UHGV virus genome: UHGV-0075672
DNA from: a virus
Strand: one strand, 5' to 3'
DNA: 22,142 nucleotides
Shown: positions 1 to 3,000 of the stretch, one piece after another
How the letters are laid out: every line of letters begins with the position of its first letter
Numbering within the stretch: the first letter of the stretch is position 1
Made by a program: the position numbers

Positions 1-3000
1 CTGGTCGCTGGTCGCTGGTCGCTGGTCGCTGGTCGCTGGTCGCTGGTCGCTGGTCGCTGGTCTGGCAGCATAAAATCATCCTTTTATGAAAATCAACGTT
101 TTTTGAGCACTCGCACACAAAAAATTACCGCATTGGTTGCAACGACAACCTGCATTTTGCGGAGCATATGACAAATAAAGTACGGGTGCGTTGAGGATGC
201 CAGACACATCAGAGGTGGCGGGAGATTACTCCCCTGCCTGGTCTCTTACTTCTCAGATTCGTAGTCTACGAAGACAGCGACCTCCGTCTGGCCGGTTCGG
301 ATTCGTACCTCGCAGAGGTCTTTCCTCGTTACCAGTGCCGTCACTATGACGGTTAAACAGATGACGATCAGGGCGATTAACATCGCCTTTTGCTGCTTCA
401 TAGCCTGCTTCTCCTTGCCTTTCGGCACGTAAGAGGCTAACCTAAGTTTGTAAGTCATAGATTTGGCCTCAGATTAATGTTAAGCGTCCTGCAAGACGCG
501 TAATGTTAACTGGGGCTTTTCTCTGTCTGCCTTACGGCTGCATGCCCGAGGCAGACAGCCTCAAGCACCCGCAGCTATTCTACAGTAAAAACTCGCGCTT
601 TCAATTTCCCGCACGTCCGGCAAACTGACTGGCCTGTGATCCTGATGGTTCACGCTCAACGTACCTGTCCATTTCCAGCTTTACTCCCTGCATGATCAAC
701 ATCCCCTCAATAACACCTTCTGCTTTTTGCAGTACCCGCCCGGCCCAGCAATCAGAGCGCCCATGCTTACGGCCCAGTGACATAAGCGTCATCCCGAACA
801 CATAATAATCATACAGAAAATCATGCAAATCGCTGTTGTTGACGTTCAGTTGCGCCATGCAATTGCTGATAATCAGCGCATCGTCATCGGTACACTGAGG
901 CCGTGATTTAACCTTTGACGGGATCAGCCCCTTAAATCCGGCGGCAATGGGCGACCAGCTCACATCCTCATGATTATTGGCCACCCATGCGCCCCAGCGT
1001 TCAAGCACCTGCTGAATATCACGCATCAGAGTCTTTACCCTTATCCCATCCACGATGGACCATAAGGACACCGTTGACGACGGCGTGCCGTTTGCCTTCT
1101 TTATCGCCAATATATTTTCTGACCGTGGCACGATTACAGTTCAGTATTCGGGCCACTTCGGTCTGATTTCCATATGCCTCAACAAGCATGTCAGGAATGA
1201 TTTTTACGGTGAACGTCATGCGGCCTCACTTCTGCTGTTTCGCAGGCCTTTAAGTTTCTGTTGATACTCTGCCTTGATCGCCTTGCACTCTTCGACAGTC
1301 CAGCGGTGGCGACTATGGTTTGATTCGATTTCGTCTACTGCTTCCTGCCCGATGCGGTTAATCAGTTCGACGCGATACGGAACGAGATTTCCGCTTTTGT
1401 ATTGGTTACACACCACGCATTGCTTATGGATATTGCGTTCATCAAATCTGAGCTGAGGTGCCGCAGCTGTTGTACGGTAATGGCCAGCATCCCACTGGGC
1501 TGAATCTAACGTCCCGCATGAAACACACGGCAAATGACGGTCCCGCTCCCTGATATAAGCATTCACAGCCTGTTGTGCCTGCTTAATCCAGTAACTGCGG
1601 GGCTGTAAGTCCCTCCTGCGCGCTTTCAGCTTGTCTGCCTGCTCTTTTGCTGAAGTTATCGCCTTTTCTTTTCTGACCAGTTCCAGTGCGCACTGACCAC
1701 AGCAAACTTTCTGATATGAGCGGAACGGCACAAACGAGGAGCCGCACACTTTGCATTTTTTGGGTTTACGTTGCTTCATCATCACCTCAGAAAAACGACA
1801 GCAGGCGGTTATTCAGTTCAGGGCTGTTTGAGCGCCCAAACACATGCTTTAACGCGGCATTAATCATTGCGTTGTAGCAACGTTCAAACTCATCCTGATC
1901 CATATTCGCGTAACTCAGGCTTTTTGCCCGATATCTCACCTCGCCTCTTATGGTTGTGACCACATCATAGAACCCGGCAAGAATTGTCAGATTTTTACGA
2001 AACTCATCAAACTGCGTCGCTTCATCAGAGAATTCGTATCCAGCATGTTCAGCGCACCAGTACTGAAAGCAGAAATTAAGAAAAGCAAACATCTTCCGGT
2101 GAAAAGATGGGTTACGGGTAAGTTTTGCTTCCAGTGTATACAGCTCACCGTTTTTAAATTTTGCCAGTCGGGGTAAATCGCGCTCATACGCCGGTACAAA
2201 TACGCCATTAGCCGCCTTGATCATCTCTATTTCCATCAGGCAGCCTCCGCTTTGAATTTGCGCGTCAACACATGTTCACGGGCTTCACACCCCTGAATGA
2301 GCATGTCGTTAAAATCCGGCAAGTCAGGCCAGCGAATGCTGACCTTCTCAACGTCATTACGACTCATGAGATTCTTATGCCCACATTTAAAGGCAGCCGC
2401 CAGACCTGCGCCGTGCTCATCATTGTCTGCAAAGATAATCAGGTGATTAACGCCTGGTGGCGCAATAAACTTCTCCATAAAACCGGAGTTCATTGTTGAC
2501 CACACATTGCAGCGGAAGATTTGACGGCATGAAAGCGCAGTTTCGATACCCTCGGCTATCCCCAGAGTGGACGACACCGGATACAGGCGTATTGCCACCG
2601 ATTTGGCATGCTGCAAACCAGGCAACTCCTGTAGCGCAGTCATTTTTTTAGCCGCCTCTACATTCGCCTTGCGATCACCATCCAGCAACGTACGATGCAG
2701 ATAGCAAAGAGAACCTTTGTCATCTGTTGCAATGGCGTAAATTGCCTGATATTCGCGCCCGCTGGCGATCTGACGGTCACAGAAACGCACGGATTCGGTC
2801 GGTAACTGGAGTATTCCCCTCCCATGCAGGTACGCCTCACCTGTTGTGCCCCGCAGACACGGGAGTCCGGCAAACTTATCCATGACCCGCTCCCGTTCTC
2901 TGGCAATATCCGTTACAGTGCGTCTGGCATGCCCTCTCTTCCAGGTATTACCAACCAGTCGATCGACTTCATCGCACAGATCAACCCAGGGCTTACCCGT

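Follow-up and report, generated by a model that had tools for sequence, protein, structure and literature searches.

The hok/mok/sok locus downstream of Q

The DNA analysed here, referred to as the window, is a stretch of 22,142 nucleotides from the virus genome UHGV-0075672. Positions 119–604 of its minus strand hold a complete hok/mok/sok type I toxin–antitoxin locus, directly after the phage gene Q. The initial annotation had placed a hok/mok toxin locus at this point, and the matches to PF01848 and RF01794 and the identity to HokW described below all agree with that assignment; the promoter, 9-bp stem, direct repeats, hairpin, mok/hok frames and candidate terminator that it listed were all recovered. 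The toxin–antitoxin family has already been described, and RefSeq records of identical loci list the toxin under the Hok/Gef family; the observation is real but ordinary.

The Q antiterminator gene occupies 601..1026 on the minus strand as a 141-aa ORF with its TGA stop codon at 603..601. Its product matched PF06530 (Phage_antitermQ, E = 5e-48) and, distantly, the Q21 structures 6P18/6JNX (E = 4e-8); its identity to Q of 933W, PhiR55_1 and Lambda_ev087 was 68–79 %. Relative to Q933, with which it shares 68 % identity, this allele differs in the sequence of the recognition helix. The 3' 200 nt of Q were found in 29 of 5,426 E. coli genomes, always together with the hok junction, and no hok-less copy of the 3' end of this allele was detected among them. 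An exact 27-mer spanning the Q–hok junction was present in 13 IMG/VR contigs, all identical at that spot.

The hok toxin gene (246..401, minus strand) encodes 51 aa followed by a stop codon (codons 401..249) and matched PF01848 (HOK_GEF) with E = 4.3e-23 and 81 bits against a cut-off of 22. The predicted protein is identical at 51 of 51 positions to the experimentally characterized HokW of the Stx2 phages 933W and Sp5. The mok reading frame (246..458, minus strand; 70 aa) starts at the AUG at 458..456, is in frame with hok and shares its stop codon, which is the arrangement annotated for mokW/hokW in 933W and VT2-Sakai.

The promoter, the hok mRNA 5' end, the Sok ends and the terminator were placed by homology and folding, and seven hok loci from unrelated contexts (the 933W b-region, Rac, P1, PPompW, 606R7, E7-1N7 and this window) were aligned. 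The covariance-model search of the hok leader suggested in the initial annotation returned Rfam RF01794 at 570..396 on the minus strand, covering the complete model (1–157) with 118.2 bits and E = 9e-27 against a gathering score of 59. Because this family, named 'sok', matches the hok-sense leader, Sok itself lies on the opposite strand, at 450–520. The predicted full-length hok mRNA (119..570, minus strand) extends from G570, the 5' end given by homology to the Rfam start, to the U-tract after the terminator hairpin. It folds at −170 kcal/mol (z = −6.3) with pairing between its 5' and 3' ends.

Within the leader, the 5' stem-loop (523..558, minus strand; stem 558..550 / 531..523) was found by both Rfam and the MFE fold. 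The 9-bp stem is an exact complement, and two compensatory pair changes were observed among the seven loci (A-U to G-C and C-G to U-A). The direct repeats TAATGTTAA at 475–483 and 501–509, flanking the hairpin at 484–499, are also present. A tac-like element at the 5' end (GGGUGCUUGAGG, 559..570, minus strand) pairs in the MFE fold with an fbi-like element (CCUCAACGCACCC, 184..196, minus strand) that is complementary to the mRNA 5' end. This interaction comprises 12 pairs, 570..559 with 196..184, and is kept in 7/7 loci; as all 12 pairs are invariant, it is without covariation support.

Homology with all other hok loci stops just past fbi, at about 176. Beyond this point a terminator-like compound hairpin is predicted at 119..162 on the minus strand, with an outer stem of CCGCA (162..158) and UGCGG (132..128), an inner stem at 150..135 and a following UAAUUUUUU at 127..119; the candidate terminator noted after hok is present, with the compound hairpin at 162..128. 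A simple terminator scanner missed this minus-strand compound stem, which was placed by folding and homology. The outer stem and the T-run are conserved in E7-1N7 (78 % overall identity), and the lineage with a 136-aa Q has a different hairpin and T-run at the same position.

The initial annotation had considered that hok might have its own promoter with a Sok RNA on the plus strand around 440–520, and this option was supported by homology to sokW. Alignment to the annotated 71-nt sokW of 933W (locus L003, 1564–1634) places the predicted Sok RNA at 450..520 on the plus strand (71 nt). The mok start signals, Shine–Dalgarno sequence and AUG, fall in the part of the hok leader to which Sok is complementary; the Sok target at 450–520 covers the AUG together with the GAGG located 7 nt before it. 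Sok folds at −27.8 kcal/mol (z = −4.7) with a terminator-like stem and ends in GGGGCUUUU, and in the plus-strand RNA the two TAATGTTAA copies pair together through two G-U pairs, forming a long Sok stem. The predicted Sok promoter (415..443, plus strand) consists of TTGCCT (415–420), 17 nt and TAACCT (438–443), with a start near G450. Its region is invariant in the seven-locus alignment and was placed by homology, since the −10 matches consensus at only 3/6 positions and was for that reason missed by a consensus scanner. It is presumably the positional counterpart of the R1 sok promoter (TTGCGC-17-TATCCT).

The closest characterized system is hokW-mokW-sokW of 933W and Sp5 (VT2-Sakai). The window is 93 % identical in DNA to this annotated locus from the −10 to just past fbi (window 583..176), and the two share the in-frame mok, the 71-nt Sok, the same Sok promoter region and an extra GCGUC-loop-GACGC hairpin in the leader. 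By contrast, the −35 region with everything upstream of it and the terminator after fbi are unrelated. The setting also differs: hokW of 933W is found close to the map's right end, beside ygiW-like and ea22-like genes, whereas the hok of the window follows Q and precedes a methyltransferase insert. By eye, the first five Mok codons and the Sok 5' tail form a hot spot of difference from 933W (10/23 positions, against about 5 % elsewhere), so the Sok RNAs of the window and of 933W may not cross-react.

The hok/sok system of plasmid R1 (parB) is similar in its weak-type hok promoter, tac/fbi fold-back and mok-coupled translation, and in a convergent promoter, situated within the mok 5' region, that produces a Sok with a stem-loop and U tail. 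The Rfam family that matched the window at 118 bits was built on such loci. It differs from the window in the host replicon, a plasmid for R1 and a prophage here; the leader of the window, in addition, has an inserted hairpin of 21 nt that the Rfam consensus lacks. In R1, mok is out of frame with hok, unlike the in-frame mok of the window, and R1 Hok is 45 % identical to the Hok of the window. The published identity between HokW and R1 Hok is 44 % (PMC8621323).

The hok promoter and the late promoter pR'

The predicted hok promoter (577..604, minus strand) is composed of a −35 TTGAAA (604..599), a 16-nt spacer and a −10 TAGAAT (582..577), matching 10 of 12 consensus positions. As the initial annotation had observed, it overlaps the end of Q, with the −35 covering the TGA at 603..601. 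The consensus match alone is not significant, as a scan of 1.3 kb returned 3 promoter-like sites compared with 1.4 ± 1.3 in shuffles. What makes the promoter credible is its position: the RF01794 match begins at G570, and the end of the −10 lies 7 nt upstream of this base. The −10 is invariant as TANNAT in 7/7 hok loci from different contexts, the mRNA 5' end is conserved as well, and homology with the other hok loci begins exactly at 583, that is, at the −10. Among partial matches sampled from 3,815 E. coli records, 58 of 59 started at query positions 217–218 (window 583–584) and the remaining one at 270. None of the six other aligned hok loci abuts Q and no Q is annotated beside five of them; in E7-1N7, Q and hok are separated by two opposite-strand genes. 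The −35 (5/6 to consensus) and 16-nt spacer are better here than at several other hok loci, so that hok may be transcribed with unusual strength and the balance between Sok and hok may differ.

The initial annotation had also raised the possibility that this is the Q-dependent late promoter. Under such a reading the promoter at 604..577 would be pR', or a hybrid still modified by Q, and hok would be the first late gene. The idea is reasonable, because pR' of 933W has the same position relative to Q: the annotated 933W promoter, like the hok promoter, overlaps the Q 3' end. The start site of pR' in 933W/Sp5 has been mapped by dRNA-seq (PMC7547250). The hok gene moreover has the orientation of the late genes and is flanked by Q and the lysis genes, its −35 is strong, and the stretch 584–648 is found only with this junction, so that the −35 may be a remnant of an older pR'. 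Against such a remnant, the 136-aa-Q lineage, a third Q lineage, carries the same TTGAAA-16-TAGAAT, with its −35 2 nt after the Q stop and travelling with hok. The sequence from the −10 onward is hok cassette, found elsewhere without an adjacent Q.

The comparison with known late promoters also argues against a Q-dependent reading. The pR'-qut-tR' region of 933W/Sp5, the source of the StxS sRNA, shares its overlap with the Q 3' end but has no sequence in common with the hok promoter of the window. A pR' motif, TTTACR..CGTAAAAA..TATNNT..TAAGANTGGTT, occurs directly after Q in two related hok-less Q lineages and also at L001 10983 and L002 11051, but is absent from the hok promoter. Loading of Q21-type proteins requires a −10-like pause element in the initially transcribed region (10.1101/651190, PMC6606751), and no such element (TANNNT) was present in 570..535, the first ~35 nt of the hok transcript as read from the sequence. 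A reverse-complement 7-mer, GTAAAAA, common to the spacer of the hok promoter and that of pR' was dismissed as a post-hoc A/T-run coincidence.

A separate, complete pR' homologue was found further left, in relatives of this phage. In PhiR12_3 (99 % identical), a pR'-qut-terminator block that shares 89 % identity over 94 nt with its 933W counterpart lies ~4.3 kb downstream of Q, and strain G1/2 likewise has a pR' homologue ~4.3 kb downstream. The block (L001 10974–11067) directly follows the S gene, and the DUF6645, holin, lysozyme, Rz and terminase genes come after it. Its position falls beyond the left end of the window and is known from these near-identical relatives (99.3 % identity over window 1–1250). 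When the 6.8 kb that follow Q in PhiR12_3 and G1/2 were compared with other post-Q regions, the 933W block alone matched; those of PhiR55_1, Lambda_ev087 and E7-1N7 gave only short matches at chance level. Downstream of the hok promoter itself lie hok, the terminator-like hairpin, a repeat tract and restriction-modification genes, not lysis or morphogenesis genes. The hokW mRNA of Sp5, furthermore, does not increase on induction (PMC8621323). Taken together, a Q-dependent hok promoter appears extremely improbable, with the late promoter placed further left and hok presumably on an unrelated transcript in the near-identical PhiR12_3. The label pR' should not be given to the promoter at the Q stop codon. 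By homology, Q would instead act on the 933W-type pR' beyond the insert, which in this phage lineage has pushed the late promoter ~4.3 kb from Q.

Expression and function of the cassette

Since hok has its own promoter and pR' lies farther on, hok is the first gene of this ~4.3 kb insert. Overall, the locus is very probably a canonical hokW-type cassette with its own constitutive promoter, placed at the head of the insert between Q and the late promoter pR'. In such a cassette, TTGAAA-16-TAGAAT would produce an hok mRNA of ~450 nt from near 570. Folding and conservation point to pairing of its 5' end with fbi at 196..184, which following the R1 paradigm would leave the full-length RNA translationally inert. 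The convergent promoter at 415–443 (plus strand) would yield the 71-nt Sok, predicted to match the complement of the ribosome-binding site and start codon of mok in full. Sok would then block translation of mok, and hence of hok, with the duplex probably marked for RNase III, a dependence taken from the hokW-sokW study. Were Sok to disappear, whether because the element is lost, transcription is shut off or the prophage is induced, translation of the stable hok mRNA would follow, and the 51-aa membrane peptide Hok would damage the inner membrane, as shown for the identical HokW. The hokW-sokW pair is a functional type I toxin–antitoxin system involving RNase III and Hfq, with sokW experimentally shown to be the antitoxin (PMC8621323). 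The same study demonstrated activating 3' processing of the mRNA, differential RNA stability and neutralization of toxicity by Sok for the identical HokW and the 93 %-identical locus.

It could be argued that the locus is instead the remnant of a hok gene in decay, no longer functional and a passive passenger of the methyltransferase insert. A parallel would be hokD in E. coli K-12, itself such a remnant. Copies of hok are numerous in E. coli, where a 1,250-nt query that includes hok matched a median of 2 and at most 13 places per genome, and PhiR12_3 has a TAG in the mok extension together with five Hok substitutions. In addition, hok is annotated as frameshifted in 5 of 11 related RefSeq-annotated E. 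coli loci (L011, L014, L015, L017 and L018), indicating that selection for toxin function at this position is not universal. In the window, however, the two promoters, tac, fbi, mok, hok, Sok and the terminator are all intact and the Hok protein is identical to the toxic HokW (PMC8621323). The cassette has also been conserved behind Q in three diverged Q lineages. Passive carriage of a remnant is therefore considered very unlikely.

A further alternative keeps the hok promoter and couples the cassette to induction. Since there is neither a gap nor a terminator between Q and the hok leader, early rightward transcripts crossing Q would necessarily run on into hok in sense orientation. Such pR transcripts could collide with the sok promoter and supply sense hok RNA, so that Sok would fall and Hok would appear before lysis and aid release. 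Observations on Sp5 are compatible with this: sokW disappears in a RecA-dependent manner after induction, HokW is seen ~1 h ahead of endolysin R, and deletion of the hokW-sokW locus halves phage release (PMC8621323). Uninduced cells already contain hokW mRNA, and mitomycin C does not raise its level, while Sok vanishes (PMC8621323). The adjacency of Q and hok also recurs in three Q lineages. On the other hand, hok is a pseudogene in several relatives, and hokW of Sp5 and 933W lies elsewhere, at the right end of the map, so the induction effect there cannot depend on adjacency to Q. Induction coupling through Q is thus unlikely here, although, if true, it would offer a mechanistic account of why Sok is lost when a prophage is induced, which has so far gone unexplained.

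The insert between Q and pR'

The insert of ~4.3 kb from Q to pR' comprises hok/sok and a hypervariable repeat of 7 bp, together with genes for an HsdM-like methyltransferase and an S subunit. It resembles the inserts between Q/pR' and lysis genes of lambdoid phages ('morons', e.g. stx) in being an accessory block within the Q-to-lysis interval on the late-gene strand. Inserts of the stx type are located downstream of pR'-tR', whereas the hok-methyltransferase-S block is upstream of pR' and so by position outside Q control.

The recurring order of Q, hok/sok, (CGACCAG)n, methyltransferase-S and pR' might be a functional unit rather than an accident, which we regard as quite improbable. Early-operon read-through across the convergent sok promoter could switch Hok on at induction as a pre-lysis helper, the role reported for HokW. 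Within the lysogen, transcripts leaking past the hok terminator from the unusually good hok promoter could be the sole transcription reaching a slippage-toggled methyltransferase. If so, slippage of the 7-bp repeat would toggle translation of the methyltransferase, and hok would double as an addiction gene for the restriction-modification insert.

The start of the next unit of the insert was located at 1..83 on the minus strand, with a predicted Shine–Dalgarno sequence AAGGA (83..79), an ATG (71..69) and a (CGACCAG)n tract (62..1) that is cut by the end of the window. A literature search on this 7-bp repeat or on a phase-variable methyltransferase of E. coli prophages returned nothing specific. 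Repeat counts and reading frames were compared in related loci, and the tract leads into the HsdM-like methyltransferase gene beyond the window. As a by-product of the analysis, this repeat tract is more curious than the hok locus itself.

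The hok locus and its RNA elements

The left 1.25 kb of the window shares 99.3% identity with Escherichia phage PhiR12_3 (PV340552, host ECOR13), and prophages 98–99% identical to it are carried by ~15 complete E. coli genomes. The gene order on the minus strand is NinG (1216–1785), NinH (1019–1219), Q (601–1026; PF06530, a distant relative of Q21), the hok locus and a 7-bp repeat tract cut off by the window's left end. All elements that the initial annotation had claimed for the hok locus were present: a promoter-like site, the hok and mok frames, a 9-bp stem (523–531/550–558, exact) and, also exact, two copies of TAATGTTAA (475–483 and 501–509) on either side of a hairpin (484–499).

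The hok ORF (401..249, minus strand, 51 aa) matched Pfam HOK_GEF (E = 4e-23) and is in frame with the 70-aa mok ORF, which begins at the AUG at 458 on the same strand. A full-length match to Rfam RF01794 was obtained at 570..396 (minus strand; 118.2 bits vs a gathering score of 59, E = 9e-27). Although this family is named "sok", its model spans the hok mRNA 5' end (GGGUGCUUGA...) to the hok AUG and so describes the hok-sense leader, with Sok as the complement. From 583 to 176 the window is 93% identical in DNA to the annotated hokW/mokW/sokW of the Stx2 phages 933W and VT2-Sakai, and its Hok is identical to HokW at 51/51 residues. The hok family, the hokW allele and the hokW RNA elements are already described and the ORF is annotated by RefSeq; the local peculiarities are limited to the position upstream of the late promoter pR' at the head of a restriction-modification insert, and the overlap of a −35 hexamer with the Q stop codon.

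The antisense RNA had been expected on the plus strand around 440–520, and mapping of the annotated sokW through the alignment placed a predicted 71-nt Sok at 450–520 (+). Its predicted promoter, TTGCCT (415–420) and TAACCT (438–443) on the plus strand with 17 nt between them, falls in a block that is invariant across seven aligned hok loci (the 933W right end, Rac, a P1-like phage, PPompW, 606R7, E7-1N7 and the window). The predicted fold of Sok has a short 5' hairpin and then a long stem ending GGGGCUUUU (−27.8 kcal/mol, z = −4.7). This stem is formed by the direct repeats, UUAAUGUUA pairing with UAAUGUUAA and including two G-U pairs in the Sok strand; the hok strand has C-A mismatches there, which makes the stem weaker in hok mRNA than in Sok. 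The Sok span includes the mok AUG (458..456) and a GAGG 7 nt upstream of it.

In the fold of the predicted full-length hok mRNA (570..121; z = −6.3), the 5' GGGUGCUUGAGG (570..559) pairs with CCUCAACGCACCC (196..184), the tac/fbi fold-back typical of hok mRNAs. The 12 pairs of this fold-back are all kept in the seven-locus consensus fold and, being invariant, give no covariation support; the 5' stem shows compensatory changes from A-U to G-C in the window and from C-G to U-A in the P1-like phage. After fbi comes a terminator-like compound hairpin (162..128, minus strand) followed by UAAUUUUUU (127..119). Homology to hokW stops at ~176, and a hairpin plus T-run is found at the same place in two diverged relatives.

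Differences from hokW in window 436–470 (minus strand; columns 213–235 of the hokW alignment) cluster in the first five mok codons, where 10 of 23 aligned positions differ vs about 5% elsewhere (counted by eye). In Sok these codons match the single-stranded 5' tail, the most variable segment in the seven-locus alignment, which would fit insulation among several hok/sok copies per genome.

Assignment of the promoter at 604..577

The promoter-like site TTGAAA-16-TAGAAT (604..577, minus strand) matches 10/12 consensus positions and, as initially proposed, overlaps the Q stop codon, the TGA (603..601) lying inside the −35 hexamer. Three such sites were found in 1.3 kb vs 1.4 ± 1.3 in shuffles, so the consensus match alone is not significant; the site is credible because of its position, with the −10 ending 7 nt before G570, the first base of the RF01794 match. 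It had been left open whether this is the Q-dependent pR' or hok's own promoter. Three lines of evidence argue that it belongs to hok: the core travels with hok, Q-loading features are missing and a pR' homologue lies elsewhere.

Across the seven hok loci homology begins at the −10, a hexamer that always reads TANNAT, with unrelated DNA upstream of it. The match started at window 583–584 in 58 of 59 sampled partial matches (from 3,815 E. coli records). In the other six loci hok is not adjacent to Q; in E7-1N7 a Q gene and hok are separated by two opposite-strand genes, and the hok promoter is TTGGCA-17-TAAAAT. In a third Q lineage (136 aa, 73–75% identical) hok again follows Q with TTGAAA-16-TAGAAT, the −35 lying 2 nt past the Q stop and AAATTGAAA being common to this lineage and the window. 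This suggests that the −35, like the −10, is part of the hok-side DNA. Most hok loci have a poorer −35 than the window, so this promoter could be unusually strong.

Q21 loads onto an element that it binds within the promoter spacer and also depends on a −10-like sigma-dependent pause element early in the transcribed region (10.1101/651190, PMC6606751). The hok leader has no TANNNT in its first ~35 nt.

The 933W block containing the annotated pR', qut and first terminator matches PhiR12_3 (L001 10974–11067) and the strain G1/2 prophage (L002 11042–11135) with 89% identity over 94 nt, homology ending after the first terminator-like hairpin. The block lies directly 3' of an S-subunit gene and directly 5' of the DUF6645 gene, holin S, lysozyme R, Rz and terminase. 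A separate late promoter further left is what the initial annotation had specified as counting decisively against Q dependence; the pR' homologue was seen only in these near-identical relatives, ~3.7 kb past the window's left end. The motif TTTACR..CGTAAAAA..TATNNT..TAAGANTGGTT is located at the Q stop in two related hok-less Q lineages, the 144-aa 933W type (72–73% identity) and a 126-aa type (78%). The same motif recurs at L001 10983 and L002 11051 and is absent around the window's Q. Family-level motif conservation is the sole basis for expecting that the window's Q allele would recognize the downstream pR'. The pR' start site of Sp5 and 933W has been mapped by dRNA-seq, and in Sp5 the StxS sRNA derives from the pR' transcript (PMC7547250).

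Probable function of the toxin and its changes in relatives

The hok locus most likely works by the standard hok/sok model, element positions being observed here and consequences drawn from the family. The hok mRNA would be constitutive and locked via tac–fbi pairing, while Sok from the convergent promoter would block mok translation and through it that of hok; decay of Sok would then lead to Hok production. In Sp5, whose toxin is identical to that of the window, HokW is toxic and neutralized by sokW, with RNase III and Hfq partly required (Takada et al., PMC8621323). There, mitomycin C does not raise the level of hokW mRNA, which already exists before induction; sokW is lost on induction in a RecA-dependent manner, HokW appears ~1 h ahead of endolysin R, and deletion of the hokW locus halves phage release (PMC8621323). 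These data also count against late-promoter control. Coupling to induction by early read-through or by interference with the sok promoter, whether as a rival or an addition to the hok/sok model, is considered unlikely; in its favour, nothing lies between Q and hok in the window, so that early rightward transcription across Q must continue into hok.

RefSeq annotates hok as 'frameshifted' in 5 of 11 annotated relatives (L011, L014, L015, L017 and L018; hok ~1381–1537); all five are E. coli prophages belonging to the 93%-Q lineage. In PhiR12_3 (L001 6793–7002) a C-to-T change has introduced a TAG one codon ahead of the hok AUG; mok therefore terminates just short of hok rather than reading into it, and Hok carries five substitutions in its hydrophobic segment. 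The PhiR12_3 changes indicate that the toxin is not under uniform selection at this position.

The insert between Q and pR', and other modules

An inserted block of ~4.3 kb lies between Q and pR'. It comprises hok/sok, the terminator-like hairpin, SD-ATG-(CGACCAG)n, an HsdM/BcgI-like methyltransferase gene and the S subunit. The pR' homology takes in ~25 nt from the 3' end of a 933W-type Q gene, a scar left by the ancestral Q–pR' junction. Three diverged Q lineages are each followed by the hok–repeat–methyltransferase–S block, which in E7-1N7 is also found apart from Q; it therefore behaves as a mobile module. The copy in E. coli E7-1N7 (L008/L019, NZ_CP134805) belongs to a mosaic prophage and is flanked on one side by a Q gene, with the two opposite-strand genes intervening, and on the other by an IS4 fragment. 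Beyond this fragment comes a second nin-like region, with a DUF1133 gene, a tRNA-Ile gene and lysis genes. Such an arrangement shows that the block moves independently of Q.

The repeat tract, almost entirely outside the window, begins 11 nt past the start of an ORF that has a good SD (AAGGA, 83..79) and an ATG at 71..69 (window 1–83, minus strand). In relatives it occupies L001 7180–7770 and L002 7180–7838, and leads into the methyltransferase gene, with the S subunit next. Unit number ranges from 2 to 92 across related loci (15, 22, 30, 53, 55, 63, 65, 82, 90 and 92 in 10 E. coli loci; 2–91 in IMG/VR contigs). None of the three frames is interrupted by a stop within the tract, which reads (RPATSDQ)n; about a third of the loci examined (3/10) have the ATG in frame with the methyltransferase, and in the others the ORF ends right after the tract. 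It looks like a slipped-strand phase-variable switch and, as a by-product of this analysis, is more curious than the hok locus itself. A literature search for the 7-bp tract found no description of it. The RefSeq 'YXWGXW repeat-containing protein' on the opposite strand looks spurious.

A BsuBI/PstI-family type II restriction endonuclease gene adjoins the cI repressor gene (L001 86–388, upstream of cI; the corresponding position is within the window's span), so the prophage appears to carry two separate restriction-modification-type modules. Rfam gathering-level matches were also obtained for sRNA-Xcc1 (10532–10620, +; 65.9 bits), isrK (19659–19736, +; 73.6 bits) and C4 antisense RNA (19762–19846, +; 70.6 bits). 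The direct succession of isrK and C4 points, elsewhere in this prophage, to a P1/P7-like control region for antisense immunity or for an antirepressor.
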